NCBI GenBank assembly: GCA_039961715.1
Contig: JABRVW010000060.1
Location: 22,949 to 86,948 of the forward strand
Origin: Ignavibacterium sp.
GTDB lineage: Bacteria > Bacteroidota > Ignavibacteria > UBA10030
DNA length: 64,000 nucleotides
Direction: 5' to 3'
Shown here: positions 42,062-57,970 of the stretch, piece by piece
Layout: the number at the start of each line of letters is the position of its first letter
How positions within the stretch are numbered: position 1 is the first letter of the stretch
The notes under the pieces: generated by a model
The model's input: the letters and a program-made list of their open reading frames with translations, nothing else
What the model was told of the DNA's origin: nothing
Databases searched by the model: none
Translations under genes and position numbers: made by a program

Positions 42062-45015
42062 TGCAGAATCTTAAGGGACACCATGAATTCGTCCGACGAT
42101 CGCTGATTCTTCTCTGCGGCCCTCGCATAGCCCAGAGAGAAGGTTGATTCAAAGGACGAGAAGAGCACGAGTCGAACATCGAGTTGTGCGCCCGCGCTGA
42201 TTGCTGTGCCGCGCGAAATCTTGTCTACATTCGTCCCGATGGCCGCGGTGAACAGGGACAGGCGCATCCAGTTGGAATAGAGAGTCTGGAATCCCAGGTG
42301 ACGGAATCGTATGGGCGGAAGGTTCCATTCCAGCATGCCCTTCAAATAATTGATGCCGCCAATCTGGTTGATGGCGAGCCCGGGAAAACTTTGGTCCTCC
42401 CGGTACCGCCAGATCTCTCCCACGTCCACCCAGTTGTTTCCAAAACCCCCGAAATAGAAATTGGCGAACGGATTGTCGCGCCGGCCGAACGAAATGCCTC
42501 CGGCTGTCCTCAGCCACAGGGACGAATGGTCGATGGGTAACAGGAAGCCGTAGCCGAGATTCGTGCTCATGCGCGGATAAGCTTCCCCCAGCACCATGTT
42601 CGCATGGGTGGCTGCGCGCCACTCCAGGCCCTTCTCATGCTCCACGGCTCCCAGAGACTTCGAAAGGTTCTGATAGTTGATGCGGGCATCGAAGGACCAG
42701 AACCGGTCAAACGAAGCGACAATGTTCTGAAACTCCGGCAAACGCTCCAGTCCCCAGTATCCGCCAACGGTGAACCGGTAATCCATCGTTTCCGGCTCGT
42801 CAAAGATTGCGTAATCCTTGTACTGGAGCGAAAGGGAATATCCTTTCCGGCTTGTCTTCGTCGGCCCAAACAGGTCGTAGAAGTCCGCTCCGTTCATTGC
42901 GGCCGTCAGCTTCCATTCCCAAAGCCTGTAGTTGAGAACGGCATGAATGCGCTCGTTGGATGGAAGCACTGTGTTGGGAGTGTAGGAAGCCGTCAGGTCG
43001 ATCATATGCGAGTAGATGGGATCCGCAAAGCTGAAACGCATCCCGTACGCTGCAAAGTTCTTGTATCCCTCAACCACGGGGTAGGCGGACACGAGCGAGA
43101 TGTGCGTCTTGTACTCCCCGCGGTAGGCGACAAGCGAATCAAGGTTCACGTTTGCCGCTGAGGGACGGCGCACGTGCCATGATCGCACCACGGGATGACG
43201 TTTTGCGATCTCGTTCCCCAGGTAACGGATTGCGCCCACGTTCTCTACGGGTGTGGTGCCGATCATCACGGGCACAAATCCCTGCCCTGTATACAGAAAG
43301 GCGAGGATAGAATCGGGAGACACCGGAGTTGGGCGGAAGAGGCCGGTTTCGCAATTCGTCAACCAGTGCATCTCCTTTGTCTCAAAATCGTACCGGACAA
43401 TGTTCGATACCCCGCTGTAGTACGACGATCCGAACAGATGCTTCCCGTCGGGTGAGAACACAAAGTTCGCAGGGGTGCTGATGTCGAAATCGTACAGAAT
43501 GTCATAGGACGTCTTCCCTGCAAGAAGATCGGCAATGTTCATCGCGATAAGCTTCTGCGTACCGTCCAGTTCCGCTAACGCGGCCGTCAGCATCGTTCCA
43601 TCCGGCGAAATGTCGAGATCAAAAATGTCCTTCCCATACGGCCACGCAGAGACCAGATTCCATTCCGTATACGGCGCGGGGATTCTCACGAGGGAGGAGA
43701 TCCCATTGTAGTGCCGGACGCCCCAGAGGCTCCGATCGGAGGGATTGAACACGAAGTCCCCGGTACGGCAGTCCTTCAGGAGCATCGTTGTCTGGCCTGT
43801 TTTGAGATCATAGGCGTTCAGGTCCCGCCACTTATTGTTATCGGTCGAGAAGAACAAAGTTTCTGTTGAAGGATCGTGGGCGAGGGAGGTGACGTAAAAC
43901 AGAGTGCCTCCGCGAACGTCATGCAGTCTGCGCTTTGTTCCCGTGGCGAGGTCGATTGCGGCAAGGTGTGCGACCTGGCCCGGATAATTCACCGCGGCGT
44001 AAAGAACGTTTCGCTCCCTGTCCACAAACGGCCTCGAGACAGATCCCAGGAGCGTCCGCGTGATTTTCCGGTACGGAGTGACCGGATTCATCCTGATCAG
44101 ATCGAGGTTCTCGCGTTGCCACTCACGCTCCCATGCGATCCAACGGGCCCACTCCTCGTCAAGCGGAGTTCCGAACACCTGCCTGAACCGCGCCGCGAAA
44201 TGATTCTTGCTCTCGCGATCGTGGTTGTTCCATGCCACGACCTTCTCCGGTCCGTACTGGAGAGCCAGATAGCTCATGAAGCGGGTGCCGTACAGATAGG
44301 AATTTGCCCCGACCTGGAAATCGGCCTTGGTCCCTTCTGCCTCCAGCCCCACGATGTCATAGAAGTGCGCGCTGTCTCTGACCATGGTACGGAACATCAT
44401 TTCGTCATAGGCGCCGAGGGCGCGGCCCAGTCCCCCGTTCATCCAGGTCTCCATGAACACCGCCTGCCCCTCGAAAAACCAGCTCGGCGCGTAGAGACGC
44501 GGGCTGGTAAGATACCCGTAGAGAAGCGAGAGAGGCGCTTCGGGAATCGGCGCAATCTTCCCCCCGAAGAGCGATCGAAAGAATTTCGCGGTCGATGAAG
44601 GCTTGTCCATGGTGACGATATGGGCAAGTTCGTGATTCATCATCCAGCTCATCCGCTCCACTGCCGGCATGGTTTCGTAGGAATAGTGAAACGGCGAGAT
44701 TCCCACGCTGATAAGATTTCTCGGTACTCCGGTGGCCCCTCCGTTTCCGAAATCGCCAAAATCCTGGATCAGCACCGTCACAGGTTCCGAAGGTGTGTAG
44801 TCGAAGAGCCGGGAATGGAAATCGAGGGCAACCTCAAAGCAGCGGGCCACGTGAGGGACAAGGTATTCATGTCCTTTGGAGAAATACACAAGTCGAAGAT
44901 GCTCGGTCTCCAGGGCGGACAGCTGGGCGTGCACGTGACCCGCCGAAAGCCCGTGGAACAATCCGGCCAGGAGGAGTGATCGTGCGGACAGGGGCATGCG
45001 TCCTTCGCTGATCAA
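42058..45015 (-). CDS. Large secreted HExxH zinc metalloprotease-like protein with beta-propeller-type repeats
   Basis: Signal peptide. N-terminal HELAH motif. Central region with repeated WD/TolB-like blades. 985 aa. ATGA overlap with the downstream PrsW gene. Confidence 0.5.
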   Translation of the reverse strand: MISEGRMPLSARSLLLAGLFHGLSAGHVHAQLSALETEHLRLVYFSKGHEYLVPHVARCFEVALDFHSRLFDYTPSEPVTVLIQDFGDFGNGGATGVPRNLISVGISPFHYSYETMPAVERMSWMMNHELAHIVTMDKPSSTAKFFRSLFGGKIAPIPEAPLSLLYGYLTSPRLYAPSWFFEGQAVFMETWMNGGLGRALGAYDEMMFRTMVRDSAHFYDIVGLEAEGTKADFQVGANSYLYGTRFMSYLALQYGPEKVVAWNNHDRESKNHFAARFRQVFGTPLDEEWARWIAWEREWQRENLDLIRMNPVTPYRKITRTLLGSVSRPFVDRERNVLYAAVNYPGQVAHLAAIDLATGTKRRLHDVRGGTLFYVTSLAHDPSTETLFFSTDNNKWRDLNAYDLKTGQTTMLLKDCRTGDFVFNPSDRSLWGVRHYNGISSLVRIPAPYTEWNLVSAWPYGKDIFDLDISPDGTMLTAALAELDGTQKLIAMNIADLLAGKTSYDILYDFDISTPANFVFSPDGKHLFGSSYYSGVSNIVRYDFETKEMHWLTNCETGLFRPTPVSPDSILAFLYTGQGFVPVMIGTTPVENVGAIRYLGNEIAKRHPVVRSWHVRRPSAANVNLDSLVAYRGEYKTHISLVSAYPVVEGYKNFAAYGMRFSFADPIYSHMIDLTASYTPNTVLPSNERIHAVLNYRLWEWKLTAAMNGADFYDLFGPTKTSRKGYSLSLQYKDYAIFDEPETMDYRFTVGGYWGLERLPEFQNIVASFDRFWSFDARINYQNLSKSLGAVEHEKGLEWRAATHANMVLGEAYPRMSTNLGYGFLLPIDHSSLWLRTAGGISFGRRDNPFANFYFGGFGNNWVDVGEIWRYREDQSFPGLAINQIGGINYLKGMLEWNLPPIRFRHLGFQTLYSNWMRLSLFTAAIGTNVDKISRGTAISAGAQLDVRLVLFSSFESTFSLGYARAAEKNQRSSDEFMVSLKILQ

Positions 45016-45085: not shown

Positions 45086-45121
45086 GAAAAAAGAAGAGGG
45101 AATGACCTCGCGGCCATTCCC
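45086..45121 (-). terminator. Intrinsic terminator (minus strand) after the repeat-protein gene
   Basis: 7-bp stem gggaatg / cattccc with a 10-nt loop. The plus-strand A/G-rich run immediately 5' of it gives a U-rich tract on the minus-strand transcript. Confidence 0.45.
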
Positions 45122-45144
45122 TCGAAACAACCAGCAAACAGTGG

Positions 45145-46452
45145 TCAGTCCAGACGATGAACGCCCTTGACCAGCTCTGCGAATCGCGCGCTCTTCAGGA
45201 GCTCGGCGAAACGGGCATCTTTCATGAGGCCCGCGAACCTGGCATCCTTGGCGAGCTGGGCGAACCGTGCATCCTTCATGAGCTCGGCAAAACGGGCATC
45301 TTTCATCAGCTCGGCAAAGCGTGCGTCTTTCATAAGTCCCGCGAAACGGGCGTCCTTTGCCAATTCCGCAAACCGTGCATCTTTCATCAGCGCGGCAAAT
45401 CGCGCGTCCTTGGCGAGCTCGGCGAACCGTGCATCCTTCATAAGCTCGGCAAAGCGGGCGTCCTTCGCCAGTTCCGCGAACCGGGCGCTCTTCAGGAGTT
45501 CTGCAAACCGTGAATCCTTGGCAAGCTCAGCAAACCTGGCATCTTTGGCCAGCGCAGCGAAGCGAGCGTTGTTTGCCAGTTCCGCAAAGCGGGCATCTTT
45601 CATCAGCTCCGCGAATCTGGCGTCCTTCATGAGTTCCGCAAAGCGGGCGCTTTTCACAAGCTCTGCAAAGCGGGCATCCTTCGCCAGCTCGGCGAACCGG
45701 GCATCTTTTGCCAGTTCGGCAAACCGCGCATCCTTTGCCAGTTCGGCAAAGCGGGCGTCCTTCGCCAGTTCCGCGAACCGTGCATCCTTCAGAAGCTCGG
45801 CAAACCGCGCATCTTTTGCCAGCTCTGCGAATCGCGCATCCTTGGCCAGTTCGGCAAACCGCGCATTGTTCGCCAGTTCCGCAAACCGCGCATCCTGCAT
45901 AAGCTCGGCGAAGCGCGCATCCTTCATCAGCTCGGCAAACCGGGCGTCTTTCATAAGTTCCGCAAAGCGGGCGCCCTGAAGCAATTCGGCAAACCGCGCA
46001 TCCTTCGCCAGCTCTGCGAACCGTGCATCCTTCGCCAGCTCGGCGAACCGTGCATCTTTTGCCAGTTCGGCAAACCGCGCATCCTGCATGAGCTCGGCAA
46101 AGTATGCGCCTTGCATCAATTCGGCAAACCGCGCATCCTTCGCCAGTTCGACGAACCGGGCATCCTGCATCAGCGCCTGGAAGTTCGGGTCGCCGATCAG
46201 CTTCTGAACCTGGTCGCTCTGCAACAGCAGTTGAAACTCGGGATCCTCAAGATTGACATCCTCGGCTGTCATTTGCTCGGCGCGGTACTTCTCAGCCTTC
46301 TGGATCCCGCCAATCGTTCCCGCCGCATCGTCTGAGCTGACGGGCGGATAGAAGAACGCAAAATAGATGATTGCCAGTGCGGCGACGACAACTCCGCCGG
46401 CGGCAAACAATCTCTTGCGGCTTCCCGCTGATCCTGTGGAACTCGGTGCCAT
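45145..46452 (-). CDS. Membrane-anchored tandem nonapeptide-repeat protein (about 40 x [K/Q]-D-A-R-F-A-E-L-[A/M/L])
   Basis: N-terminal single TM (RKRLFAAGGVVVAALAIIYFAFFY) with positive-inside residues. About 40 consecutive 9-aa repeats. Perfect SD (AAGGAGGA) 5 nt upstream of ATG. 17-nt gap after the anti-sigma gene. Own terminator downstream. Confidence 0.75.
   Translation of the reverse strand: MAPSSTGSAGSRKRLFAAGGVVVAALAIIYFAFFYPPVSSDDAAGTIGGIQKAEKYRAEQMTAEDVNLEDPEFQLLLQSDQVQKLIGDPNFQALMQDARFVELAKDARFAELMQGAYFAELMQDARFAELAKDARFAELAKDARFAELAKDARFAELLQGARFAELMKDARFAELMKDARFAELMQDARFAELANNARFAELAKDARFAELAKDARFAELLKDARFAELAKDARFAELAKDARFAELAKDARFAELAKDARFAELVKSARFAELMKDARFAELMKDARFAELANNARFAALAKDARFAELAKDSRFAELLKSARFAELAKDARFAELMKDARFAELAKDARFAALMKDARFAELAKDARFAGLMKDARFAELMKDARFAELMKDARFAQLAKDARFAGLMKDARFAELLKSARFAELVKGVHRLD
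45166..46248 (-). repeat. Coding tandem repeat, 27-bp period, about 40 copies, degenerate at synonymous positions
   Basis: Protein-level period of 9 residues, with 3 degenerate N-terminal copies then about 37 near-identical copies. The DNA copies differ mainly at third codon positions. Confidence 0.85.
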
Positions 46453-46469: not shown

Positions 46470-47225
46470 TTAGTGTGATTGATCCGTTTGACGTTCGGAA
46501 TCAAAAACCAGTCGTTGCTCGAACTGCGTCGTTCCATCGAGAAGAATCTGTACAGCGAGTGTCGGAGTCTGTTGATCGGAGGCAAAGCTGAGGGTGGTGT
46601 TCACGTCATTCCTGACGGCCAGGCGCACCTGACCGGGGGAAACTTCAAGTGTGGAGGGCTGATCGGCCGCATAGCGCACAAACCTGGCGTCGGTTGGGGA
46701 ATAAAGAACACGCACGGTGAATTCACGGCCGCTCTGAAAAGAACCATGGACCTGAATTGTCCCGTCGACCACCTGGCCCCTGATCGAACCGCTGACCTCG
46801 GGGAGTTCGATCCGGGCGGAGGCTTTTGCGGATTGTCCGATCGTGCCCGCGAGCCCGGCGGAATCCGAGGGAGCTCCGGAGAAGGCAAGAAAAAGGGCGA
46901 TCCCCGCCACAACGCCGCCGGCAAAGGTAGAGGCAGTGCGGAAAACCGGAATCCGGACAAAATCGGAGAGACGATCCCAAAGGGAGGACGAGGCCGCGGA
47001 AGGCCGCGGAAGCGAATTGAGAATTCTGAGCTTGAGGGAACGTGGAGGATCAACTTTGGGAACGTTCTTGAGCGTTGCCGAAAGCTTCTTCAACTCGGCG
47101 TACAGCTCACGCGCTTCTTTGTTCCGTTCAAGAGTCTCCCGCACGCGTTCACTGTCACGCGGAGAGTTTGCTCCATCGATTTCCTGATTCACGAGATCGT
47201 ACGTTCGCTTGTCAAGCATTGGCAA
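46470..47225 (-). CDS. Membrane anti-sigma factor (single TM, cytoplasmic N-domain)
   Basis: Start overlaps the ECF sigma gene end. N-terminal 70 aa charged/helical, typical of anti-sigma domains. Single TM FAGGVVAGIALFLAF. Periplasmic C-domain. Confidence 0.6.
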   Translation of the reverse strand: MPMLDKRTYDLVNQEIDGANSPRDSERVRETLERNKEARELYAELKKLSATLKNVPKVDPPRSLKLRILNSLPRPSAASSSLWDRLSDFVRIPVFRTASTFAGGVVAGIALFLAFSGAPSDSAGLAGTIGQSAKASARIELPEVSGSIRGQVVDGTIQVHGSFQSGREFTVRVLYSPTDARFVRYAADQPSTLEVSPGQVRLAVRNDVNTTLSFASDQQTPTLAVQILLDGTTQFEQRLVFDSERQTDQSH

Positions 47226-47754
47226 TTCCCTTTTTCATCAACACTCGTCTGAGAACGCGTCTGGCGGAAAAAAGGCGTGACTTGACGGTATTCTCGCGAA
47301 GATCGAGAATGTAGGCAATCTCACGGTAGGAAAGGTCCTGAAAGTGATTCAAGATCACGAGGATGCGATAGTCGGGCTTCAATTCCAGCAGAGCATTGTT
47401 GATGGCGAGTGTCATTTCGGGATCGCCGGCCGTTTCTTCTTCTCTCTGCTTCGAATGAAGTGTTTCGTCGAACCGGTCGAAATCCCGTTTGCGATTCAGG
47501 AAGTTGATGGATTCGTTCACGGCGATCTTATAAAGCCAGCTGAAGAACTTGTACTTCGGATCGAACGTGCTCAGCTTCTCGAATGCCTTGACGAACACCG
47601 TCTGCGTGATATCCTCGGCGTCTTCCGTGTCCGTTGTGAAGCGGAAGGCCAGATTGAACACCGGTTTCTGGTACCGGTCAACAAGCTCCTCAAAGGCTTT
47701 CTGGTTCCCGTCCAGGCATTGGCGAACGAGAAGGGAATCCTCTTCCTGTCTCAT
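47212..47754 (-). CDS. ECF (group IV) RNA polymerase sigma factor
   Basis: Region 2 (FEELVDRYQKPVFNLAFRF...DITQTVFVKAF) and region 4 (LSYREIAYILDLRENTVKSRL). Start taken at MRQEEDS (ATG 47754); a 35-codon upstream extension is possible. Confidence 0.8.
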   Translation of the reverse strand: MRQEEDSLLVRQCLDGNQKAFEELVDRYQKPVFNLAFRFTTDTEDAEDITQTVFVKAFEKLSTFDPKYKFFSWLYKIAVNESINFLNRKRDFDRFDETLHSKQREEETAGDPEMTLAINNALLELKPDYRILVILNHFQDLSYREIAYILDLRENTVKSRLFSARRVLRRVLMKKGIANA

Positions 47755-47876
47755 ACCTACAAGCGATCTCTGGAAAAGTTGGCGTGTGCAGGGGGAGAAA
47801 GGTACTCCCTTTTGAGGGAGAGTTGCAACCAAAACCGGAAAAACGGCCAAAAAACGCAAAAACCGGGGGGTGGGAT

Positions 47877-48161
47877 TTACTCGATCTCAAAAATCATGTC
47901 AAATCGAGCAAAATGAAAGACATCCCTGATATGCTTGTTCATATTGATTAATTTCAGCTTCTTGCCCGACTGGCTCAGGCGCTTCTGGGTTGCCAGCAGA
48001 ACTCCCAGCCCGGCGCTGGAGATATACTGAAGCTCCTTGAAGTCCACCCTGGCGGAATCGTTGATCCTGCCCAATACTTCCGATGCTTTATCCGTTTGGG
48101 CGGCATCCAACCTCCCGCTCAAGACTACATCACCCTGATCGGTTATTCTGATATCAAACAT
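47877..48161 (-). CDS. STAS-domain anti-sigma-factor antagonist (RsbV/SpoIIAA-like)
   Basis: 94 aa. Phosphorylatable Ser motif ELQYISSAGLGVLL. Confidence 0.8.
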   Translation of the reverse strand: MFDIRITDQGDVVLSGRLDAAQTDKASEVLGRINDSARVDFKELQYISSAGLGVLLATQKRLSQSGKKLKLINMNKHIRDVFHFARFDMIFEIE

Positions 48162-48164
48162 TGC

Positions 48165-48566
48165 TTACTCCAGCGGCAGGTGAAACGAAATGATGCTCGT
48201 TCTATCCTGATGCTCATACTGAAGATTCTCGACAAGTTTCTGGACGAGGTAGATTCCCAGGCCGCCCGGCTTCCGTTCTTCCAGCGACCGTTTCAGATCG
48301 ACGCTCCTCTGCTTGCTGACGTCAAACGGATCGGAATCCGGATCGGTGATCCTGACCAGCACTTCCTTTCCGTCAGAAGCCAGATGCATGTGAATATCGC
48401 CTTTTCCGGACTGGTTGTACTTCACCATGTTTGTAAAGAGCTCTTCAACGGCAAGGTCAAGCACGTATCTTACCTTCTCGCTGACTGCATGAATCCGCGT
48501 GAACTCGTTTGTGAACTCAAACACGCTTTGAAGCTGTGCGAACGTGCGTTTGAAGGACCGGTCCAC
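48165..48566 (-). CDS. Anti-sigma regulatory factor / Ser-protein kinase (RsbW/SpoIIAB-like, HATPase_c)
   Basis: 133 aa. N-box EELFTNMVKYN. Placed 3 nt upstream of the STAS gene. Confidence 0.7.
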   Translation of the reverse strand: MDRSFKRTFAQLQSVFEFTNEFTRIHAVSEKVRYVLDLAVEELFTNMVKYNQSGKGDIHMHLASDGKEVLVRITDPDSDPFDVSKQRSVDLKRSLEERKPGGLGIYLVQKLVENLQYEHQDRTSIISFHLPLE

Positions 48567-48570
48567 GGCG

Positions 48571-49854
48571 TCAGGGTCCGCGTTTGTACACGATTCCCTC
48601 TTTCATAACAAATCCGATCTGCTCCAGGGTGCTGATGTCCTTCAACGGATCGCCGCGGGTTGCCACAATGTCCGCAAATGCTCCAGGGGTGATCTCGCCG
48701 ATCATTCCGTTCATCCCCAACAAGTCCGCCGCGACTGTGGTTGCCGACTTGATGGCCTGCATTGGGGTCATGCCCCATTGAACCATGTAGGAGAATTCCT
48801 TGGCCTGGTTCTCCGTCCACGCGAAACCTCCCGCATCGGTCCCAAACGCGATCTTCACGCCGGCTTTCAAGGCCCTGGCGAAGGTGAGCGGGAGCCGGTC
48901 TTTGAGGCTGAGAAAAACCGTATTGCCCTCGGCGGCCCTCCCCTCGGCCACCCACATGTTGACATGAATTGTTGGGCACCAGTACACTCCGTTCTTTACC
49001 ATTGAACGGATGCACTCGTCATCAAGTGCCTGCCCGTGCTCGATGGTCCGAGCGCCCGCGGCAATGGCTGCGAGCACACCATCCCGTGTCACCGCATGAG
49101 CGGCAAGCTTCTTGCGCAAACGAAGAGTCTCTTCCCCAATGGCTGTGATTTCCTCCTTTGTGAAATTCGGAATGCTCCTGAAGGTCCCGTCGGGAAGCTG
49201 ATAATAGCTCCCGTCCGCATAGATCTTGATCCAGTCGGCTCCGTACGAGACCTGTTCCCGCACTGCGCGCCGCGCCTCATCGACGCCGGTAATCTCCTGC
49301 ACACCTTTGGGCATGCGCAATTCCCAGGCGTAGGAAGAATTGTTCAGGAGATACCGTCCCGTGGTGCTGATCGATCGCGTGGCGACGAACATGCGCGGGC
49401 CGATGATCACTCCGTTGTTGATCGCTTTCTTCAAATCAACATCAGCATACATCGCGCCCTCAGTTTCAAGGTCGCGGATCGTTGTGAAGCCGTTCATGAG
49501 GGCTGTGGAACAGGCGCGCGCGGCACGGAGCGTCCGGTAGGGAATTGATTCTTTCAGGATCTGTTCGGCGTAGTCCTCGGTCGTGATGTCTCCCTGGAGC
49601 AGGACATGGGTGTGACAATCGATGAGGCCAGGAAGCACCGTGGCCGAGGACAGGTCAATGATTGTGGCGCCCGGAGGAATCGCGAGGTTCCTCCCAACCG
49701 CCGTGATCCGTGCGCCCTCAATGAGGATAACAGCATTCTCCAGCGGCGCGTCCGATCGCCCATCGATCAGCCTGCCGCATTGAACGGCGGTGATTTGGGC
49801 GGAGAGGAATGTGGGAGCGACAACAGCCAGGAAAAGCAACGTGCGGATCATCAT
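48571..49854 (-). CDS. Amidohydrolase family metal-dependent hydrolase, secreted
   Basis: Signal peptide. N-terminal composite-domain pattern ...LPGLIDCHTHV. 427 aa. Ends 4 nt before the RsbW-like gene. Confidence 0.75.
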   Translation of the reverse strand: MMIRTLLFLAVVAPTFLSAQITAVQCGRLIDGRSDAPLENAVILIEGARITAVGRNLAIPPGATIIDLSSATVLPGLIDCHTHVLLQGDITTEDYAEQILKESIPYRTLRAARACSTALMNGFTTIRDLETEGAMYADVDLKKAINNGVIIGPRMFVATRSISTTGRYLLNNSSYAWELRMPKGVQEITGVDEARRAVREQVSYGADWIKIYADGSYYQLPDGTFRSIPNFTKEEITAIGEETLRLRKKLAAHAVTRDGVLAAIAAGARTIEHGQALDDECIRSMVKNGVYWCPTIHVNMWVAEGRAAEGNTVFLSLKDRLPLTFARALKAGVKIAFGTDAGGFAWTENQAKEFSYMVQWGMTPMQAIKSATTVAADLLGMNGMIGEITPGAFADIVATRGDPLKDISTLEQIGFVMKEGIVYKRGP

Positions 49855-49913: not shown

Positions 49914-50852
49914 CTAAGAGTCAAGGAACGGAAGAGTCTCCTGTTCCCCGATGTCGAGGAAGAGGATCCTTTCCGTGATGCCGGCGGTATCCGCCAGGGC
50001 GAGAAGCTGTTCAATCGCATACGTGGGCGAAGGATCGAATCCCTGGACAAGGGTTCTGTGATGCATCGGAAGCATCAGCCTGGCGCCGAGGTCCTGAAAG
50101 ACCTGCAACGCCTGTGCGGGATCGACATGATAGCGCTCCATGAAGTCCCGCGGTTCGATGGGTCCGATGGGCAGAATGGCGAGATCGATGCGAAAGCGGC
50201 GTCCGATCTCTTTGAATAACTCAGGATGGTACCCCGTGTCGCCGCCAAAAAACACCGTGATTCCTCTGTACTCGATGACCCATCCCGTGTATCCGCGGTC
50301 GCGCATCCAGAGCATGTCGAATCCGTACCTGCCGCTGAAGTGCTGAACGGGAACGGCCGTAATGCGAACGCCCTGATGTTCGATTGTTTCCCAGGGTCGC
50401 ATTTCCCTCATTTCTTCAAAACCCAATTCCGGCGTATAGGGAAGGGATCCGAGCGGAAGGAGAAGCTTCCCGTGCTTGGGAATTCTGTCCAGGCTGCCGA
50501 AGCTGAAGTGATCAAAGTGGATGTGGGATATGAGCGTGAAATCGACCTGTGAGAGGCGGGACGGGTCAAGGCCTGGGGCGATCGTCCGTTTCATCACCAT
50601 GCCGACGGTGTTCGTGAACAACGGATCAGTGAGAAACACTTTGTCGTGAATGTGAACCAGGACTGTGGCATGACCCGACCAGAGAACGGAGAACTTCCCC
50701 TCCGATGCATGAATTGTCTGCTCATGGACCGGCGCAGGTTCGATGGGCCTGCCGATCTGTTCCACGGACTTCATGAGGAACCTGCTCACCATGGAGCTGC
50801 AGCCTCCGAAGATCACAATGGTCGCGAGAGAAGCAAAGATTGGCCGAATCAT
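49914..50852 (-). CDS. MBL-fold metallo-hydrolase lipoprotein (COG2220/NAPE-PLD-like), paralog 1
   Basis: Start at MIRPIFASLATIVIFGGCSS (ATG 50852; the 136-codon extension is rejected). HIHFDH = HxHxDH motif. N-terminal WSGHATVLV pattern. Confidence 0.7.
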   Translation of the reverse strand: MIRPIFASLATIVIFGGCSSMVSRFLMKSVEQIGRPIEPAPVHEQTIHASEGKFSVLWSGHATVLVHIHDKVFLTDPLFTNTVGMVMKRTIAPGLDPSRLSQVDFTLISHIHFDHFSFGSLDRIPKHGKLLLPLGSLPYTPELGFEEMREMRPWETIEHQGVRITAVPVQHFSGRYGFDMLWMRDRGYTGWVIEYRGITVFFGGDTGYHPELFKEIGRRFRIDLAILPIGPIEPRDFMERYHVDPAQALQVFQDLGARLMLPMHHRTLVQGFDPSPTYAIEQLLALADTAGITERILFLDIGEQETLPFLDS

Positions 50853-51808
50853 GGGGTGACGGGCGGACGCGAAGAGGGGATTATGACCTGTTGCTCCCCG
50901 ACGTCGAGATCGACGATACGGTCGGAGAGGCCCATTTCGGCGGCAAGAGCCCGGAGCGTGATGATGGATTGAGCGGGATCCTGCTCGAAACCGTAAAAGA
51001 GGGTTTTGTGGTGAACCGGAAGCATGTAGTCTGCGCGGACATCCTGAAAAATCATCAATGCTCCGCGTGGGTGCACATGAATCCGCGACCCCACTTCCCA
51101 GGAACCGCCGGGACCGATCGGGATGACAGCAAGGTCGATCGTGAAGCGTCGACCGATCTCCTTGAAGTGCTCGGAGTGGTATCCTGTGTCCCCTGCGAAA
51201 AAGATCGTGAGGTCCTTGTATTGAACCACGTACCCCGTAAAGCCGTGATCCCGCATCCATGCGCCGTCGAAGCCGTATCGCCCGCTGAAATGCTGGACTG
51301 GAACTGCGGTAATGGTCAGACCGGAATCTTCAATCGATTCCCAGGGGGAGAGCTCATAGACTGCGCGGAAACCGAATTCAGGCGTGTAACGAAGGGCGCC
51401 GAGGGGGATTGCCAGGATGCCATTTCGGGGAAGCTGTTCGATGCTTCCGTAGCTGAAATGGTCAAAATGCGTGTGCGAAATCAGCGTTGCGTCGAGCTTG
51501 GGGAGGATGGCTGGATCGATACCCGGGGCGATGTAGCGTTTAACCACGATGCCCACGGTGCCTGTGAACAACGGATCGGTCATGACCAGCTTGTCGTACA
51601 TCTGGATGAGCGCCGTTGCATGGCCCACCCAGGCGACGGCAAGATCTGCCGACGGCTGGATGGGTTGGGTAATCATCGACGGAGCGGGCGCGATGGGTTC
51701 GTTGATGCGGCTCATGGAACGCGTGAACATCCGCGCGGCCCAGGTACTGCAGCCGGCCAGAAGGAGGGCAAGGCCGAGAGATGCCAGGGAGAGAAGCCGG
51801 CGCCTCAT
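50849..51808 (-). CDS. MBL-fold metallo-hydrolase lipoprotein, paralog 2
   Basis: Lipoprotein signal LLLAGCS. HTHFDH motif. Collinear similarity to paralog 1. ATGA overlap with paralog 1. Start at 51808 (or 51841). Confidence 0.7.
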   Translation of the reverse strand: MRRRLLSLASLGLALLLAGCSTWAARMFTRSMSRINEPIAPAPSMITQPIQPSADLAVAWVGHATALIQMYDKLVMTDPLFTGTVGIVVKRYIAPGIDPAILPKLDATLISHTHFDHFSYGSIEQLPRNGILAIPLGALRYTPEFGFRAVYELSPWESIEDSGLTITAVPVQHFSGRYGFDGAWMRDHGFTGYVVQYKDLTIFFAGDTGYHSEHFKEIGRRFTIDLAVIPIGPGGSWEVGSRIHVHPRGALMIFQDVRADYMLPVHHKTLFYGFEQDPAQSIITLRALAAEMGLSDRIVDLDVGEQQVIIPSSRPPVTP

Positions 51809-52344
51809 CAAAACACCCTGAATTCCAGTGATCCGATCCATGCGGTGGGGTTGTCGGCATGCTTGAGGTTAAGATGGAGCATGCCGAAGAGCGTGGAGAT
51901 GCCGGCAATTTTGAACACGCATGTGGTTCCGGCGACGCGGTGTGCTCCCACCCCCAGGTTCAGCGTCAAATGCTCGCCGCGTTCGGACAGCGGAATGAAT
52001 CCCATGATTCTGGCATACGAGCCGAAATACGACGAGCCGAGCTTGGATGTATAGATCTGTCCTGCAACGCTCAGCTCAACGGATCCCGTGAAACGGGCGG
52101 TCGGTTCGACGATGAAGGTGTACCAGGGGGAGACGTACCGGTTGATGCCGAAGGAGTACAGGAGCGGCGTGACTTCCCACTCGAATCCAAAGTTGGAGGT
52201 GTGGGCATCGTTATAGAGCGTAAGCGTGGGGAGGAACTGAAGCGGAAGCCAGACGGAGAATTTGTCGGCGTTTTCCTGGGACAATTGCGCGTGTGCTCTG
52301 GGAACCACACACACCAGAGCAATGACGAGAAGAGTTGTTTTCAT
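51808..52344 (-). CDS. Small outer-membrane beta-barrel protein (OmpW/PagL-size)
   Basis: Signal peptide MKTTLLVIALVCVVPRAHAQ. About 8 amphipathic beta-strands. C-terminal ...LEFRVF. Stop overlaps the paralog-2 start. Confidence 0.45.
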   Translation of the reverse strand: MKTTLLVIALVCVVPRAHAQLSQENADKFSVWLPLQFLPTLTLYNDAHTSNFGFEWEVTPLLYSFGINRYVSPWYTFIVEPTARFTGSVELSVAGQIYTSKLGSSYFGSYARIMGFIPLSERGEHLTLNLGVGAHRVAGTTCVFKIAGISTLFGMLHLNLKHADNPTAWIGSLEFRVF

Positions 52345-52504
52345 GGCAATTGATATAACGCACCGGCATTTCTCAAAGTTCTGTAAAGTAAGAACAAAAG
52401 CAGATGAAGCCAAGGCCAAATGAGAAGACAGAAACCGGACCCAACGTCCGCATCAACAGCGGACGTTGGATCGTACCGGGGATGTGAAACAGGTCCCTTG
52501 AGCT

Positions 52505-52753
52505 TTACGGATTCCTTTTCAGGACAAACTCCTCAGGAAGCACATACATCCCCGTGTCAGGCACGGAAGTCATGTACATCGTATCCGGTACCGAAGTGGC
52601 CACCCTGCCCGTGTCGGGTACAGAGGTCACGAGGTACACGTTGCTATGGAGTCTTTTCGCGCGGATCTCCGTTTGCTCCGGGCAGCAGTCACATCCCGCC
52701 GTTCCGAGAACGAAGAGAAGGAAAGCGCCGAGGATGGGGAATTGACGGTTCAT
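52505..52753 (-). CDS. Small lipoprotein with three TSVPDTG-like repeats
   Basis: Lipobox LGTAGC followed by DCC. Internal repeats VTSVPDTGRV / ATSVPDTMYM / TSVPDTGMYV. Confidence 0.35.
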   Translation of the reverse strand: MNRQFPILGAFLLFVLGTAGCDCCPEQTEIRAKRLHSNVYLVTSVPDTGRVATSVPDTMYMTSVPDTGMYVLPEEFVLKRNP

Positions 52754-52783
52754 AAGTCCTCCCGTTTGAAGTGGACAAGTGAA

Positions 52784-55700
52784 TTAGGAAGCCGAGAGGC
52801 GGTCGAGCATCAATCGGACCACCCGGGCTTTTTGATGCGAATCATCGGCTTCGCTCCATGCTTCGGCGGCTTGTTTCAGGTGATACAAAGCTTGCTCGTT
52901 GCGGCCAATTGTTGCGTACCGAAGGCCCATCTCCGCGTGGAGGCCCGGCCATAGTTCTGTGATCCAAAAACCATTGGATCTCAACGAAATGAACACACCA
53001 GTGACCACCTCCCCCCGGTGACGAAGGATCGATTGTGAAACGGCGGCCCACGACGAATCGGAGACCCGGAAGAACCCCTCTGCAATCCTTGCCTGTGCGA
53101 GAAAATACAGTGGATCCCCTGCATGAATCTTCCGGATAGAATGGAACTTCTGAAGGGCATCTTCGACCAGTCCCCGCTCCAGATCAAGCTCGGCGAGGAT
53201 AAAATTCCTGAAGTCGTCCTTGCGTTTCAGAAAGTAAGGGTCTATGCTGTTGAGGCGGTTGAAGCGACGCACGATGCCAGCGGCCTTTTCCACAAATCCT
53301 TTGCGTGCAAAGCTGCTTCCGACAAACAAGTACTCCAGGAACGGGGAAGTGGAAAGCCCAAGGGCCTGCTCCATGAGTCGGTGATAGTCGGGAACGTCAC
53401 CAAAGTCAAACGAAAGCTCGCCGAGCAAATAGAGAAACCACGTTTCCTCTTTGGTTCTCTTCAATGTATGGCTAAGCCACAACCCCTCCTGACAATAACG
53501 CCTGGCCTCCGAGAAGCGTCCTCGGAAGTGACAGAATGAAGCAAGATTGAGCAACGCCTGAAGCCGGGTGGCATCATCCCCCACATTCAAAACGTGTCGA
53601 AGAATCACCTCGGATGAGTCAAAACGTTCAGCACACCACCAGGCGCGGGCTCTATAAATATCAATCGTATGATAGGAGGGCCGCAGGGCTTTGCTCTTTG
53701 CGTAGTAATCAAGTGCTTGATGGGGATCTCCGGCAAGGGAAAGCGCAAATCCCATGTTGTTGAAGACCGGGCCGGCATATACGGAATCCAACGAGAGGTA
53801 CTGCTTGCCCGTTTCGACTGACCGGACAAAATCGCCGGCGAACATTGCAAGGTGCGCCAGTGTTGGAAGGCCTTCCGGGCTGTTGGGGTAACGGACGACG
53901 AGATTTTGGAGACTCTCGTAAGCTTTTTGAAAATCAAGTTCAAAACTCGGCCCATAGTATACTGAAAGGATGTAAAACTTCTCCCGATCGGTTACACGGT
54001 GGATCAACGGGAGAACGCGGCGATGAAATTCAAGAGCCAGACTGTCGTTTCCCAGTTTGCGATGAATGTAGGAGAGATCGCTGACAGCCATGGTGAACAG
54101 CGAATCCAGCTCCACCGCCCGTCCCTTCAGGATGGCGGCTTCTTGGTATTTTCCCTGCCGCTCCAGCACGTCTCCGCGTGAGTACAACTCAAGTGCTTCC
54201 AGAGACCTCGTGGTGACTTCCACAAGGGGCAACGTTGTGCGAGAGATTTCCGACAGGGACTCTCCAAGCGATTCCCGAATATCCTCAGCGAGGCGGTCGA
54301 CGCCCGAAAGAATGTTTTCGAGTGATGCGACTTCCTGCCTGTGGAGAGCCACAGCTTCTCCGGAACCCGCATCGATGATCTTTCCGGTAAGGACGTATGT
54401 TGATCCCAGGCGACCGATCGATGCGGACAACACCACCCGCGCTCCTACCCGGCGTGCCAGCGACACCCCGGTCGATTCGCCGACAAAGACGTCAGGAGAG
54501 AGATCCATGAGGGGGAGGGTTGTGTACAGGCGTTCCGCCGGGAGGATGTTGAAATGAGACGACTGGCGCAGTGAAACGCGTATGGCCTCCTTGATCGAAG
54601 AATCAAACCGGCTGTCGCCGGTCTCATTCACAATATCGGTGATAAGGACGTAGTCCCGGGGAGAAATGTCTACGGACGGAGTCCTTGTCACCATGAACCA
54701 GATTGTGCCCATGCCCAGGAAGAGGAGAGTGCCGGAGAGGAGAGTCCTTGTCGACGGTCGACGTTGCATCGTGGGGCTCTTCACGTCCCCGAGCGACGGG
54801 GTCTGAAGGCTTCTCAGGACCTCATCCATGGATCGAGGCCGAAGCAAAGGATCCTTTTGCAGACAACGCGTGCAGAGATGCGCGAGTTCATGGGGGATGT
54901 TGGAACGGAGATTTTTGGGCGAAGGGGGATCCTCCTGGGTGATGGCGTATATCATGGCAGGGGCATGCTCGCCGCGAAATGGGAGCTGGCCGGTCAGCAT
55001 TTGAAAAAGAACCACGCCCAGTGACCAGAGGTCGCTCCGTTCGTCCGTGCCCTGTCCGTTCAGCTGCTCGGGGGCCATATAGGCGATACTTCCCAAAACG
55101 GTTCCGCGTTCGGAGACAGTAGAAAGACTGGCAATCTTTGCCACGCCGAAATCGAGGATCTTCACAACGCCATCGCTTGTCACGATGACGTTTGCCGGCT
55201 TGATGTCGCGATGGAGGATTCCATGAAGGTGGGCCGCGCGGATGCCTTGGGCAATTTGGATCACGATAGCCCTGGCCCGTTCGGGAGGAAGAGGCCCCTC
55301 CTCAAGGATGTCCTGAAGTGTTCTCCCTTCCACATATTCCATTGCGATGAAACTGCGAGTTTCCTTTGTCAGAGGATCTTCGGCTGATCCCAGCTCAAAA
55401 ATTCCCGCAATGTTGGGATGGGTCAGGCGTGCCGCCGCCTGGGCTTCGCGCGAAAAACGGACCTGTTCCTCGTGGGAGACATTTTTGTCGAGCGGCAGGA
55501 ACTTCAGGGCGACTGGCCTGTGGAGGGACGTATCTTCGGCCTTATATACAACCCCCATTCCGCCCTCCCCCAGCTTCTCAAGAATGTTGTAATGAGATAT
55601 GGTTCGGCCGATCAAGGCACACCCCGTGTCGTGACACCATGATGACGGCGTGAATCGGAACGCTGTGAGAACCCGGAGAGAATTGTCTCCCAGGATTCCC

Positions 55701-55864: not shown

Positions 55865-55947
55865 GTGGCCCTCACGGCCTGTATTGCCGGGAACTCAATC
55901 TTGTTGTACTGCGGAAGGAGGGCTGGGGAAAAACAGAAAATTGAACG

Positions 55948-56151
55948 TTACAATTTCGAGAGCTGGGAACCGGCATCCGCCCCGATGTCGCCGTAGCTCA
56001 CAAGTGTGTTGCCGTCGTTGTCGACCTCGAACTCGACGACCACCCCCGCCTGCATGAGGATGCTGAACAGGCGTGTTTCGTCGTATCCCTTCAGATTGGG
56101 AAACTGGCCGTGGATTGTGGCGAGGAACTGATCGTATGGCACTTTCGGCAT
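55948..56151 (-). CDS. Small hypothetical protein (67 aa)
   Basis: ORF only. No recognisable motif. Confidence 0.2.
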   Translation of the reverse strand: MPKVPYDQFLATIHGQFPNLKGYDETRLFSILMQAGVVVEFEVDNDGNTLVSYGDIGADAGSQLSKL

Positions 56152-56244
56152 CACACAAATCCTTTCATCCTGATGCACCACGCACATTCCGAAAAATACT
56201 CAACATGGATAAACCTCCAATGACGTGCGTCACTCCGGGCGATG

Positions 56245-57003: not shown

Positions 57004-57142
57004 TGCAGGAGAAACCTCCCAGATTCTCGTCGTGTATCAGTTACCTCATGCTTTCCGTGTACATGACGCAGAGAACCGCCGAGACAAAAAAAGAGGACCA
57101 CAGAGAAACGCTTTGCATGTCCAAGATGACGCCATACCTTAT

Positions 57143-57691: not shown

Positions 57692-57970
57692 GACATGGTC
57701 TCCTTCACGTGACCTGTTCTTGGGACAAAATATACGGAAGGAAAATGTAACCAACGCAGGAGTGAAGGTCAACACTTGCAGGTGCCGTCACCAAAACATC
57801 AAGACCTGGTTTTTCGGGACAACGAAGAATCATGTTCGAAGAGGAGAGGTGAAACCTCTGAAACGAAACTGCCCCAGAGGCTGGAATTCCTCAGTGACGA
57901 TCGAATACGGGGTGCAAGTCCGCCCTGCCCGATTTCTCTTCAACAGCATGATTACGGGATTCCATTCCCA

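Follow-up and report, generated by a model that had tools for sequence, protein, structure and literature searches.

Introduction

No other family of alternative sigma factors is as large as that of the ECF factors, and the ways in which these are controlled have been documented extensively. The sigmaB (RsbU/RsbP, RsbV and RsbW) and sigmaF (SpoIIE, SpoIIAA and SpoIIAB) systems of Bacillus subtilis control group 3 sigma factors by means of a PP2C/SpoIIE phosphatase, a HATPase_c_2 serine kinase and a single-domain STAS protein with a conserved serine. RsbW binds sigmaB, and the structure of SpoIIAB with sigmaF shows that anti-sigma factors of the RsbW type contact region 3 of the sigma factor among other parts. 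In Rv1364c of Mycobacterium tuberculosis, which regulates the group 3 sigma factor SigF, the PP2C, RsbW-like kinase and STAS domains are united in one polypeptide. To our knowledge, targets are unknown for most RsbU/V/W-like modules outside Firmicutes and Actinobacteria.

In the CrsR-CrsA switch of Shewanella and the HsbR-HsbA switch of Pseudomonas, a PP2C domain and an RsbW-like kinase are part of the same protein chain, and the STAS antagonist is a protein of its own. The kinase domain of CrsR/HsbR binds and sequesters RpoS, which is not a group 3 sigma factor, in the manner of an anti-sigma factor, and is antagonized by the STAS protein, which can also bind FlgM (PMC6482189). The targets of these switches are RpoS and FlgM/FliA instead of an ECF sigma factor, and the sigma gene is not adjacent. 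The alphaproteobacterial PhyR-NepR-EcfG system also is a partner switch on an ECF sigma factor, but its proteins are unrelated: it employs a sigma-mimic response regulator and a small anti-sigma factor, with no serine kinase, STAS protein or PP2C. Reviews of ECF sigma factors treat PhyR-NepR-EcfG as the sole ECF partner switch (PMC8103513, PMC8999054), and control of the RsbW/STAS type is unmentioned in the 2021 ECF reclassification and in two ECF reviews from 2021-2022. The only described locus found that pairs an ECF sigma factor with an RsbU/W/V-type switch is Bordetella btr, which encodes the ECF sigma factor BtrS, BtrA and BtrU/BtrW/BtrV (PMC7498569).

The window analyzed here, a 64-kb stretch of DNA, contains a single copy of a widespread three-part signaling cassette. 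The first part is a cytoplasmic partner switch composed of a GAF-PP2C phosphatase, an RsbW-like kinase and a STAS protein, the same three protein types as in the sigmaB and sigmaF systems. The second comprises a sigmaW/sigmaE-like ECF sigma factor and an RsiW-like single-pass anti-sigma factor. The third belongs to the envelope and consists of a membrane-anchored repeat protein, a 979-aa protein with an HExxH motif, a TolB-like propeller and a barrel, and a membrane protease of the PrsW family. In contrast to B. subtilis, the host lineages of the cassette presumably are Gram-negative (diderm). The cassette differs from Bordetella btr in that the latter has unrelated genes in between, a secreted anti-sigma factor (BtrA), no homolog of PrsW or of the 979-aa protein, and a distribution confined to Bordetella.

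Results

Organization of the Cassette and Its Upstream Neighbors

An earlier note on this DNA had described the gene order kinase, STAS, ECF sigma factor, membrane anti-sigma factor and repeat protein, and the coordinates of these genes all were confirmed on the minus strand, on which the other cassette genes, the amidohydrolase gene and the motifs and hairpin described below also lie. The note had presented the RsbW/RsbV-type pair as fused upstream of the sigma pair; in the window the genes adjoin but are separate. The cassette extends downstream to position 41039, past the genes named earlier, to include the genes for the 979-aa protein and the PrsW-like protease. The presence of these two proteins identifies the membrane arm as a proteolytic pathway of the sigmaW/RsiW/PrsW type.

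As the note had observed, an amidohydrolase gene (48571-49854) ends 4 nt before the kinase gene, with its stop codon at 48571-48573 and the GTG start of the kinase at 48566. The product, assigned as a secreted, Xaa-Pro dipeptidase-like enzyme, matched Amidohydro_1 (E = 1.7e-39) and NF051886 (E = 1e-97, which is below the curated cut-off) and has a signal-peptide-like N-terminus. The gene probably is co-transcribed with that of the kinase. The narrow spacing and the retention of this neighbor in the close lineage would be in keeping with a kinase-STAS pair that belongs to an amidohydrolase operon and whose place before the sigma gene is incidental. This reading is highly improbable as it is contradicted by the comparative data: the amidohydrolase gene is upstream of the kinase gene only in the close lineage (L001, L002, L004, L011-L016), outside which it is missing whereas the kinase-STAS-sigma order persists. 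The amidohydrolase is outside the conserved cassette, and the adjacency is lineage-specific. Further upstream, the Ser/Thr kinase-TPR (Pkinase-TPR) protein that had been proposed as another input was located by domain search at 52784-55864 on the minus strand, but is a weak candidate for that role as it is nearby in only about 9 of 80 loci.

Conservation of Gene Order

Gene order was compared in 80 kinase-anchored genome loci. As these represent the nearest relatives of the query, distant members may show a looser linkage. The loci represent Bacteroidota/Ignavibacteria, Rhodothermales, KSB1, Calditrichota, Gammaproteobacteria, Gemmatimonadota and Acidobacteriota. The STAS gene was behind the kinase gene in every case that could be scored (78/78), and the order kinase-STAS-ECF sigma, part of the five-gene arrangement whose conservation in related genomes the earlier note had proposed to check, was kept in 71 of 75 informative loci from several phyla. 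An anti-sigma gene came after the sigma gene in at least 59 of 68 loci, and the genes for the 979-aa protein and PrsW were present in 49/55 and 45/49, respectively. When loci were anchored instead on the 979-aa gene, PrsW was found in 53 of 58, and kinase or STAS genes were detected in 16 of the 19 metagenome loci with enough flanking sequence. The placement of the switch genes in these metagenome loci varies, being upstream, divergent from the sigma gene or behind PrsW, and their retention despite this shuffling argues for function. Most arrangements by far have the kinase or STAS gene immediately next to the sigma gene. Clusters without any switch also occur (L142, L146 and L163). The gene order of the cassette is not due to chance. 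As the two modules do lie side by side and this arrangement is strongly conserved, the RsbW/STAS pair is likely to be linked functionally to the ECF sigma pathway, and the conserved linkage of switch and sigma factor points to an undescribed form of control of this sigma class.

The placement of the kinase and STAS genes directly before the sigma gene resembles the sigmaB and sigmaF operons, although the order is reversed relative to rsbV-rsbW, with the kinase gene preceding the STAS gene. The cassette differs further in that the sigma factor is of the ECF type (group 4) and not of group 3, in that this factor also possesses a membrane anti-sigma factor, and in that the internal sigma-dependent promoter is behind the switch genes and not ahead of them.

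Linkage of this kind might also arise if the switch served the same response but acted on something encoded elsewhere, be it a different sigma factor, an enzyme or a second-messenger protein, and stayed beside the ECF cluster only through co-regulation or gene-island co-transfer. Many Gram-negative partner switches have non-sigma or unknown outputs, and BtrU/W/V share a locus with the ECF sigma factor BtrS, yet regulate type III secretion, doing so post-transcriptionally and with no part acting as a negative regulator (PMC7498569, PMC8256260). The switch genes of the cassette have no sigma-dependent promoter, and two loci (L021 and L032) bear PP2C-kinase-STAS genes without other cassette genes. 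Nevertheless, the linkage with the sigma gene spans several phyla and survives rearrangements, and the neighborhoods reveal no other conserved candidate target gene, which makes an unlinked target improbable.

The Partner Switch Proteins

The RsbW-like serine kinase (48165-48566) is a soluble, 133-aa protein and a candidate anti-sigma factor. It matched HATPase_c_2 (PF13581) with E = 7.7e-19, and the family profile matched RsbW (6m36_A) with E = 9.4e-8. The ATP-binding residues E41, E42, N46, D75, R98 and G101-G102-L103-G104 are invariant among 16 diverse relatives and include the N-box, the G1 aspartate and the G2 glycine motif of the GHKL fold. There are 784 related protein clusters, and 333 matching stretches were found in a species-representative genome collection. 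The assignment of the kinase as an RsbW ortholog was rejected as the NCBIfam RsbW models matched only far below their cut-offs.

The STAS gene (47877-48161) starts 3 nt past the kinase stop codon and encodes a 94-aa antagonist that matched STAS_2 (PF13466; E = 1.8e-11), TIGR00377 (E = 1.2e-13) and PF01740. The phospho-serine motif claimed previously is present as YISSAGLGVLL, in which S49 aligns with the DS*xGLG phospho-serine of RsbV (6m36_B) and of TM1442. Absence of the phosphorylatable serine from the alignment, raised earlier as an observation that would count against the proposal, does not apply to this protein, and of 79 relatives 78 share S48, S49, A50 and G51 and 77 share L52. S49 thus is the predicted phospho-acceptor.

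The GAF-PP2C phosphatase of the SpoIIE family (57971-59278; SpoIIE, E = 3e-55; GAF_2, E = 6.6e-17) is encoded on the strand of the kinase gene, 9.4 kb ahead of it, and no membrane segment was found in the protein. It is the sole PP2C of the window, and matched PP2C proteins encoded adjacent to the cluster elsewhere (564 bits for L049; about 265 bits for L055 and L075). The suggestion in the earlier note that this phosphatase is the partner of the switch gained weight from comparison, since 39 of 72 relatives have a homolog immediately ahead of the kinase gene, and in 17 the two form one reading frame. The phosphatase is predicted to dephosphorylate the STAS protein. The PP2C-kinase polypeptides of these 17 relatives resemble CrsR and HsbR, but CrsR and HsbR carry an N-terminal receiver domain whereas the cassette phosphatase has GAF. 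In L064 and L087, PP2C, kinase and STAS form a single polypeptide as in Rv1364c, whose sensor domain and genomic context differ from those of the cassette. Both types of fusion occur beside the sigma gene, and tie the three switch proteins together as one unit next to the sigma factor. A stressosome, with its two types of STAS protein, one of them bearing an N-terminal sensor domain, and its RsbT kinase, is not indicated: the window has one short STAS protein and one kinase only, and the neighborhoods lack an RsbR-like gene.

The ECF Sigma Factor, Its Anti-sigma Factor and Promoter Motifs

The 180-aa sigma factor (47212-47754) has Sigma70_r2 (E = 4.7e-17) and Sigma70_r4_2 (E = 2.3e-13) domains without region 3, and a canonical DAEDITQ motif in region 2.2 that can be read straight from the translation. 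TIGR02937 matched with 110 bits against a cut-off of 42.9, and the best NCBIfam matches were SigY and SigW. Matches in the PDB were 6in7_B (1.5e-24), which was deposited as 'sigma-H factor' and which we take to be AlgU, SigW (5wuq_A; 8e-23) and RpoE (1or7; 1e-21). The most likely start is the ATG at 47754, which was preferred to a TTG at 47859 and leaves a gap of 122 nt behind the STAS gene that harbors promoter-like motifs.

The start codon of the anti-sigma gene (46470-47219) overlaps the sigma stop codon (ATGCTTGA). The product, a 251-aa protein, had no match in a Pfam search. However, its N-terminal profile matched RsiW (5wuq_C) over residues 5-78 with E = 8e-9 and RskA with E = 0.008, and the anti-sigma model NF052375 matched with E = 7.8e-6. 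A single membrane segment (residues 100-118) is followed by a periplasmic C-terminal domain. Unlike RsiW, the protein lacks the HxxxCxxC zinc ligands: the 'HLETCEKC' of RsiW aligns with 'aLLeadpea' in the family consensus. A working mode like that of RsiW therefore is predicted for this class I anti-sigma factor, which is not a zinc anti-sigma factor.

A sigmaW-like motif, CCAACyTTT-N12-nGTA, abuts the start codon of the sigma gene in 73 of 74 loci, as counted with the form [AC]AAC-N16-nGTA. In the window the motif (CGCCAACTTTTCCAGAGATCGCTTGTAGGTA; 47754-47784) comprises a -35-like CCAAC plus T-tract (47782-47774) and a -10-like GTA (47760-47758), and its last base is the A of the sigma ATG. 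The start-site geometry of the sigma-gene motif is unusual. A position-weight matrix trained on L011-L090 only gave the window site a score of 28.8, equal to the training median, and this was the sole strong match in 64 kb. The form of the motif, AAC, a T-tract, N and a CGTA-like -10 element, is that of published sigmaW-type promoters, tGAAACnTTTt ... CGTA (PMC5758882), and the motif presumably is recognized by this sigma factor.

A second copy precedes the repeat-protein gene in about 45 of 80 loci and travels with this gene in L078 and L081, and in such other lineages the repeat protein presumably is a direct target of the sigma factor; the matrix scan of the 64-kb window found no such copy before the repeat-protein gene. 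The motif never was observed before the switch genes, and stray matches were absent from about 2 Mb scanned. A further promoter-like element in the STAS-sigma gap, TTGCAA-N18-TACCTT (47799-47828), occurs once in the intergenic DNA of the window and is lineage-specific, being kept as TTGnnn-N18-TACCTT in the close relatives L001, L002 and L011-L016. Separate transcription and action on a different sigma factor had been named at the outset as observations that would speak against the proposed pathway. The first applies in part: behind the STAS gene there is an ECF-type promoter that belongs to the sigma gene, and the motif is never ahead of the switch genes, so that transcription is at least partly separate. 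Conserved synteny, by contrast, argues against a different sigma factor as target.

The Envelope Proteins

The repeat protein (45145-46452) has a membrane segment at residues 15-33 and about 37 copies of a nine-residue unit, (K/Q)DARFAEL(A/M), which correspond to a 27-nt period with 37.4 copies. It is fused to the anti-sigma factor in seven loci. A consensus scan located a putative terminator-like hairpin, a 12-bp stem followed by a T run, 3' of the gene (45096-45123).

The 979-aa secreted protein (42058-44997) has an N-terminal domain with an HExxH motif that occurs in every homolog listed, with H122, E123 and H126 invariant in two alignments. The AlphaFold2 model (mean pLDDT 75.7) matched TolB in Foldseek with E of about 1e-10, and the C-terminus, assigned as a beta-barrel, gave a weak match to Omp85_2. 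An NCBIfam search produced no match. At least 5526 related clusters exist and, among the matches listed, the names all were 'hypothetical protein', one with Pfam PF26550.

The gene for the 340-aa PrsW-family intramembrane protease (41039-42061; PF13367, E = 1.4e-22) overlaps the 979-aa gene by 4 nt. Residues E79, E80 and K83 of the EExxK motif and H181 and N185 of HxxxN are invariant. The score against the NCBIfam PrsW equivalog, 28 bits, is far under the cut-off of 225, which marks the protease as a distant member of the PrsW family. Fold matching was confined to the membrane part, which matched APH-1. In addition, the C-terminus of the protease forms a cytoplasmic domain of about 125 aa whose conservation extends across phyla and for which PDB and Pfam searches gave no match. 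The cassette protease thus differs from Bacillus PrsW in this extra domain and in being encoded within the cluster.

This domain is a plausible docking site for the switch, as it is conserved in all phyla and has no known relative. Unphosphorylated STAS protein, or the kinase, might bind to it or to the cytoplasmic domain of the anti-sigma factor, and thereby either dislodge the sigma factor or control whether the first cleavage takes place. The envelope pathway could in that case be triggered or vetoed from the cytoplasm, and the switch would act on the membrane arm and not on the sigma factor. In four loci (L050, L147, L156 and L160) the switch is beside the repeat-979aa-PrsW genes with no sigma, anti-sigma or motif nearby, and in L170 it lies right behind PrsW. 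There are precedents: in its non-phosphorylated form the STAS protein HsbA binds FlgM, which is an anti-sigma factor but no kinase (PMC6482189), and STAS proteins such as SiaC (PMC9239204) and SypA (PMC8256260) are known to act on targets other than sigma factors. Against this, the switch genes adjoin the sigma gene and not PrsW in most loci, loci without a sigma gene are uncommon and may have that gene elsewhere, and neither a fusion nor another sequence sign joins STAS or kinase to PrsW or the anti-sigma factor. Action on the membrane arm is unlikely on balance, but is to be taken seriously.

Discussion

The membrane arm of the cassette resembles the sigmaW-RsiW-PrsW(-RasP) pathway of B. subtilis in its sigma factor, the anti-sigma domain and the EExxK and HxxxN motifs of its protease, and augments that pathway with a repeat protein, a 979-aa outer-membrane-type protein and a partner switch. 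Our preferred reading, which is tentative and only just short of probable, is that the switch feeds a second, cytoplasmic input into this pathway and that its kinase serves as an additional anti-sigma factor. The membrane anti-sigma factor would hold the sigma factor until the PrsW-like protease initiated proteolysis and led to its release, as for sigmaW in Bacillus. The soluble kinase would bind free sigma factor and phosphorylate S49 of the STAS protein. A cytoplasmic signal would activate the GAF-PP2C phosphatase, whereupon dephosphorylated STAS protein would capture the kinase and free the sigma factor. Full sigma activity then would require both an envelope signal and a cytoplasmic signal. 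As the switch genes are outside the sigma-dependent transcripts, the switch would be present in a fixed amount and could set a threshold against spurious self-activation. Of the multi-input pathway envisaged in the earlier note, the conserved juxtaposition of the two modes of control and the GAF-PP2C partner are supported, whereas a Ser/Thr kinase-TPR input is doubtful.

Direct sequestration of a region-3-less ECF sigma factor by an RsbW-type kinase beside a membrane anti-sigma factor, a two-key gate at roughly 300 loci or more, is possible, although we would stop somewhat short of calling it probable. In a mirror-tree analysis with the locus phylogeny removed, the residual correlation was highest for kinase and sigma factor (0.38), although the positive control, kinase and STAS, gave only 0.12, which leaves this analysis with little weight. 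ECF sigma factors have no region 3, which counts against contact between kinase and sigma factor. Moreover, the sigma factor already has a complete, co-induced class I anti-sigma factor such that a second is not required, and the sigma-less switch loci fit a membrane-side target as well. No natural fusions of a switch protein to the sigma factor, the anti-sigma factor or PrsW were found.

The cassette is a concrete, testable candidate both for a new form of ECF control and for the targets of RsbU/V/W-like modules. It also reveals two very common, uncharacterized components of envelope responses, namely the 979-aa family with at least 5500 clusters and a PrsW variant with a new cytoplasmic domain. 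If the two-key gate is correct, it would unite PrsW-initiated proteolysis with PP2C/STAS partner switching, and would span Bacteroidota, Gammaproteobacteria, Acidobacteriota, Gemmatimonadota and other phyla in the species-representative genome collection. Sequestration of an ECF sigma factor by the kinase would then be a new class of ECF regulation, and would provide a concrete target for many 'orphan' RsbU/V/W modules of bacteria that lack sigmaB.

Gene organization of the cassette

The genes recognized from the sequence in the earlier note were all found on the minus strand of the window, and its observation holds except that the genes it described as fused are instead adjacent, the start of the sigma gene moves to 47754, and the cassette reaches further downstream. 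The RsbW-like kinase (48165-48566, minus strand) is a 133-residue protein with a GTG start codon that matched HATPase_c_2 (E=7.7e-19). Its similarity to RsbW models was weak and sub-threshold, and an exact look-up of the protein returned no record. The amidohydrolase gene (48571-49854, minus strand) ends 4 nt before this GTG codon, as the note had stated. The gene for the 94-residue STAS protein (47877-48161, minus strand; STAS_2, E=1.8e-11) begins 3 nt past the kinase stop codon, and Ser-49 of the protein aligned with the serine that is phosphorylated in RsbV and TM1442. The longest reading frame for the ECF sigma factor opens at a TTG codon at 47859, but relatives and N-terminal alignment put the start at the ATG codon at 47754 (minus strand) which leaves a gap of 122 nt between the STAS and sigma genes. 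The sigma factor possesses regions 2 and 4 only, and its best solved relatives are 6in7_B (taken to be AlgU), SigW and RpoE.

The anti-sigma gene (46470-47219, minus strand) overlaps the sigma stop codon (ATGCTTGA). The product of this gene elicited no Pfam match, but a profile of the N-terminal 90 residues from 28 loci matched the RsiW anti-sigma domain (5wuq_C) over residues 5-78 (E=8e-9). The protein contains one membrane segment (residues 100-118). The next gene (45145-46452, minus strand) specifies a protein with one N-terminal membrane segment and ~37 copies of a nine-residue unit, (K/Q)DARFAEL(A/M), each encoded by 27 nt. Relatives of this repeat protein share a similar N-terminal region with other repeat sequences, for example ANLANL...DPKAQ in the kinase-anchored locus L050; Pfam matches to the repeat protein were rejected as compositional artefacts. 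A terminator-like hairpin (45096-45123) separates the repeat-protein gene from that for a 979-residue protein (42058-44997, minus strand), and a generic scan for sigma-70 promoters and terminators was uninformative except for this hairpin. The 979-aa gene overlaps by 4 nt with a gene for a PrsW-family intramembrane protease of 340 residues (41039-42061, minus strand; PF13367, E=1.4e-22). Both of these genes had been missed previously. In Bacillus subtilis, site-1 cleavage of RsiW is carried out by PrsW. As a PrsW-family protease is present and the best relatives of the sigma factor include SigW, the membrane arm of the cassette looks like the sigmaW/RsiW/PrsW pathway.

The GAF-SpoIIE phosphatase and Pkinase-TPR genes likewise lie at the coordinates noted previously (57971-59278 and 52784-55864, respectively). 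Genes located between those for PP2C and kinase (49914-57775), each on the minus strand like the two of them, specify a tandem pair of metallo-beta-lactamase-fold paralogues, a 203-residue protein with no Pfam match, the Ser/Thr kinase-TPR protein, a protein with an ABM domain and a Cu/Zn superoxide dismutase. The majority also are upstream neighbors in three close relatives (L001, L002, and L004). No matches were obtained with Rfam over 40-60 kb of the window or with PADLOC for eight proteins, which speaks against the presence of an RNA element or a defence system of known type.

Conservation and rearrangement of the cassette

There are 784 clusters of proteins related to the kinase. Eight homologue contexts (42-74% identity) all comprise kinase, STAS and ECF sigma genes followed by genes for a ~260-residue and a ~985-residue protein, with a variable protein of ~290-465 residues in most of them, and PrsW is next in every context long enough to reach it. 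In gammaproteobacterial contexts a GAF-SpoIIE gene replaces the amidohydrolase gene directly upstream. A scan with a kinase alignment in one genome per species yielded 333 matching stretches of which the best 80, the closest relatives of the query, were analysed by single-sequence phmmer with the window proteins on stop-to-stop reading frames. According to record titles of metagenome-assembled genomes, the best 80 of the 333 derive from Bacteroidota (including Ignavibacteria and Rhodothermales), KSB1, Calditrichota, Gemmatimonadota and Acidobacteriota, as well as Gammaproteobacteria (Rhodanobacteraceae, Rudaea, Arenimonas and others). The closest locus is in Bacteroidia MAG HBSIN02 (90% identity). 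Genus labels among the relatives include Rhodanobacter, Rudaea, Arenimonas and Caldithrix. Among these loci, STAS follows the kinase in all 78 that were informative and the ECF sigma gene comes after in 71 of 75. The anti-sigma gene was detected in at least 59/68 informative loci, the 979-aa gene in 49/55 and PrsW in 45/49. A GAF-PP2C gene is located directly upstream in 39 of 72 informative loci, and PP2C and kinase share one reading frame in 17 loci. The ATP-binding residues of the kinase are invariant and the serine motif of the STAS protein is almost so. The sole PP2C of the window matches the cluster-adjacent PP2C enzymes. The Ser/Thr kinase-TPR gene was rejected as a fixed component of the cassette as it is near the cluster in only ~9/80 loci; it may be a lineage-specific input. 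The amidohydrolase neighbor is limited to the lineage of the window, and on comparative grounds a functional assignment of the kinase-STAS pair to its operon was rejected. A stressosome also was ruled out as there is a single type of STAS protein. Two complete cassettes (L045 and L048) are present on different contigs of one Ignavibacteriota MAG (MFD00032.bin.2.15), which suggests paralogous systems in one genome.

Gene fusions were of three types only: PP2C-kinase(-STAS), kinase-STAS and anti-sigma-repeat. GAF-PP2C and kinase are in one frame in gammaproteobacterial loci that include L026, L028, L034, L039, L040, L044, L050, L061, L064 and L087. In L050 Pfam resolved a GAF-SpoIIE-HATPase_c_2 protein, and in L064 a reading frame of the type GAF-SpoIIE-HATPase_c_2-STAS; a STAS domain is within the PP2C-kinase frame in L087 also. 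The order is kinase then PP2C in the metagenome loci L118 and L144. The anti-sigma and repeat proteins are combined in one frame of ~500-550 residues in seven loci (L056, L058, L064, L077, L083, L085, and L087), mainly of the Rhodanobacteraceae type, which suggests joint action on the periplasmic side. No fusion of a switch protein (PP2C, kinase or STAS) with sigma, anti-sigma or PrsW was found in the loci searched.

Metagenomes were scanned with a 979-aa protein alignment, which provided 80 further loci and avoided circularity, as the kinase was not used as anchor. PrsW follows the 979-aa gene in 53/58 of these loci and sigma is upstream in 33/40, whereas a co-directional kinase is upstream in only 16/33. 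Kinase or STAS genes are nearby in 16 of the 19 metagenome loci with at least 4.5 kb of upstream and at least 3 kb of downstream sequence; the other three (L142, L146, and L163) have no switch. The switch is divergent from sigma in L145, L154, L116, L126, L130 and L141, and is placed after PrsW in L170. The kinase-anchored L050 (6708-13936) and the metagenome loci L147, L156 and L160 retain the PP2C-kinase, STAS, repeat, 979-aa and PrsW proteins with no sigma, anti-sigma or promoter motif nearby. The retention of the neighborhood through rearrangement is good comparative evidence that the switch, the sigma/anti-sigma pair and the envelope genes work together. The data also show the switch to be a common addition to the cassette that is not obligatory.

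Envelope proteins

Members of the 979-aa family carry a signal peptide and, near residue 122, an HExxH motif that is invariant. It comprises at least 5526 related clusters with a mean column identity of 62-66% across phyla. Names given by the sources were all "hypothetical protein" among the matches listed, one of which carries Pfam entry PF26550, and the family has no NCBIfam match. An AlphaFold2 model (pLDDT 75.7) consists of a helical/mixed N-terminal domain, a beta-propeller and a C-terminal beta-barrel. In a fold search with this model the propeller matched TolB (E about 1e-10), and neither the HExxH domain nor the barrel produced a separate match. The PrsW homologue retains the EExxK and HxxxN motifs and terminates in a helical cytoplasmic domain of ~125 residues (residues about 207-340; 41039-41440, minus strand) that is kept in every phylum with the cluster. 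Profile searches revealed no PDB or Pfam relative of this domain, and a fold search with an AlphaFold2 model of PrsW matched only APH-1, through the membrane part alone.

Promoter motif and predicted regulon

The sequence [AC]AAC-N16-nGTA is located just 5′ of the sigma start codon in 73 of 74 loci with the consensus CCAACyTTT-N12-nGTAnTn, which has the form published for promoters of the sigmaW type, tGAAACnTTTt with CGTA as the -10 element (PMC5758882). A weight matrix trained on the 80 loci only, with the window excluded, gave the site in the window (47784-47754) a score of 28.8, which is the median of the training set, and detected no further strong sites in the 64-kb window. In ~2 Mb of loci, all other matches that scored 15 or more lie between the end of the anti-sigma gene and the repeat-protein gene. 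Such a second site occurs in ~45 loci, in several cases inside an anti-sigma-repeat frame, and where the repeat gene has been relocated behind PrsW (L078 and L081) the motif was relocated with it. The second copies are followed by a normal leader of 50-65 nt and a GGAGG ribosome-binding site which confirms, as far as comparison of loci goes, that the motif is a promoter.

The motif at the sigma gene is positioned differently. At ~59/74 loci (~80%), including the window (47754-47760, minus strand), the sigma ATG codon is only 3-4 nt past GTA with no ribosome-binding site, so that the usual ECF geometry would place the transcription start ~6 nt inside the sigma reading frame. Either transcription begins unusually close to the -10 element and gives a leaderless sigma mRNA, or this promoter yields no translatable sigma mRNA. 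The former fits L145, in which the ATG codon of the divergent kinase touches the motif and leaves no space for another intergenic promoter, but TTG in place of ATG in four high-GC loci is not in its favor. The -35 element directly follows the STAS stop codon in many loci, and transcription of the switch genes therefore is likely to continue into the sigma gene. A promoter-like element, TTGCAA-N18-TACCTT (47799-47828, minus strand), is ~45 nt upstream of the ECF-type motif, and TTGnnn-N18-TACCTT is kept only in the close lineage of the window. A hairpin (CTCCCT/AGGGAG) in the STAS-sigma gap was rejected as there are no compensating changes in relatives.

No motif precedes PP2C, kinase or STAS genes in the scanned loci. 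Thus, the motif, which this sigma factor presumably recognizes, accompanies the sigma and repeat genes and never those of the switch, and the regulon would consist of the sigma/anti-sigma pair and envelope genes with the switch outside the sigma-dependent transcripts.

Discussion

Each part of the cassette is a member of a known family. A full-text literature search found no description of the combination, and none of RsbW, STAS, HATPase and PrsW is mentioned in the main text of the 2021 ECF reclassification. PhyR-NepR is the only ECF partner switch listed in two ECF reviews. Among described loci, the btr locus of Bordetella comes nearest to this co-location; its switch acts post-transcriptionally by an unknown route.

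The sequences show which parts are present, that catalytic and acceptor residues are conserved in them, and how genes and promoters are arranged and linked; the contacts and enzymatic activities of the proteins are predicted. RsbW and SpoIIAB are anti-sigma factors of their linked sigma factors, as is the sigma-linked kinase Rv1364c. The HsbR/CrsR kinase functions as the anti-sigma factor for RpoS (PMC6482189). As sigma-linked kinases of this type are the anti-sigma factor of that sigma in these studied cases, as most arrangements have the genes for kinase and STAS directly next to that for sigma, and as fusions of PP2C and kinase with STAS as a separate neighbor resemble CrsR/CrsA, the kinase could be a second, soluble anti-sigma factor that is relieved by dephosphorylated STAS, a proposal with a chance just short of even. 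A mirror-tree comparison of 34 loci with all six proteins gave the top residual correlation for kinase and sigma (0.38), with only 0.12 for the kinase-STAS control, which leaves the comparison with little weight. Alternatively, the STAS protein or the kinase might target the anti-sigma factor or the cytoplasmic domain of PrsW. The loci without sigma and the precedent of HsbA, which binds FlgM, support such a target, and we consider this main rival the less likely of the two. In the proposed mechanism, with the kinase tentatively retained as a second anti-sigma factor, the RsiW-like anti-sigma would hold the sigma factor until it is freed by proteolysis that PrsW initiates, and the PP2C/kinase/STAS switch would contribute a cytoplasmic input.
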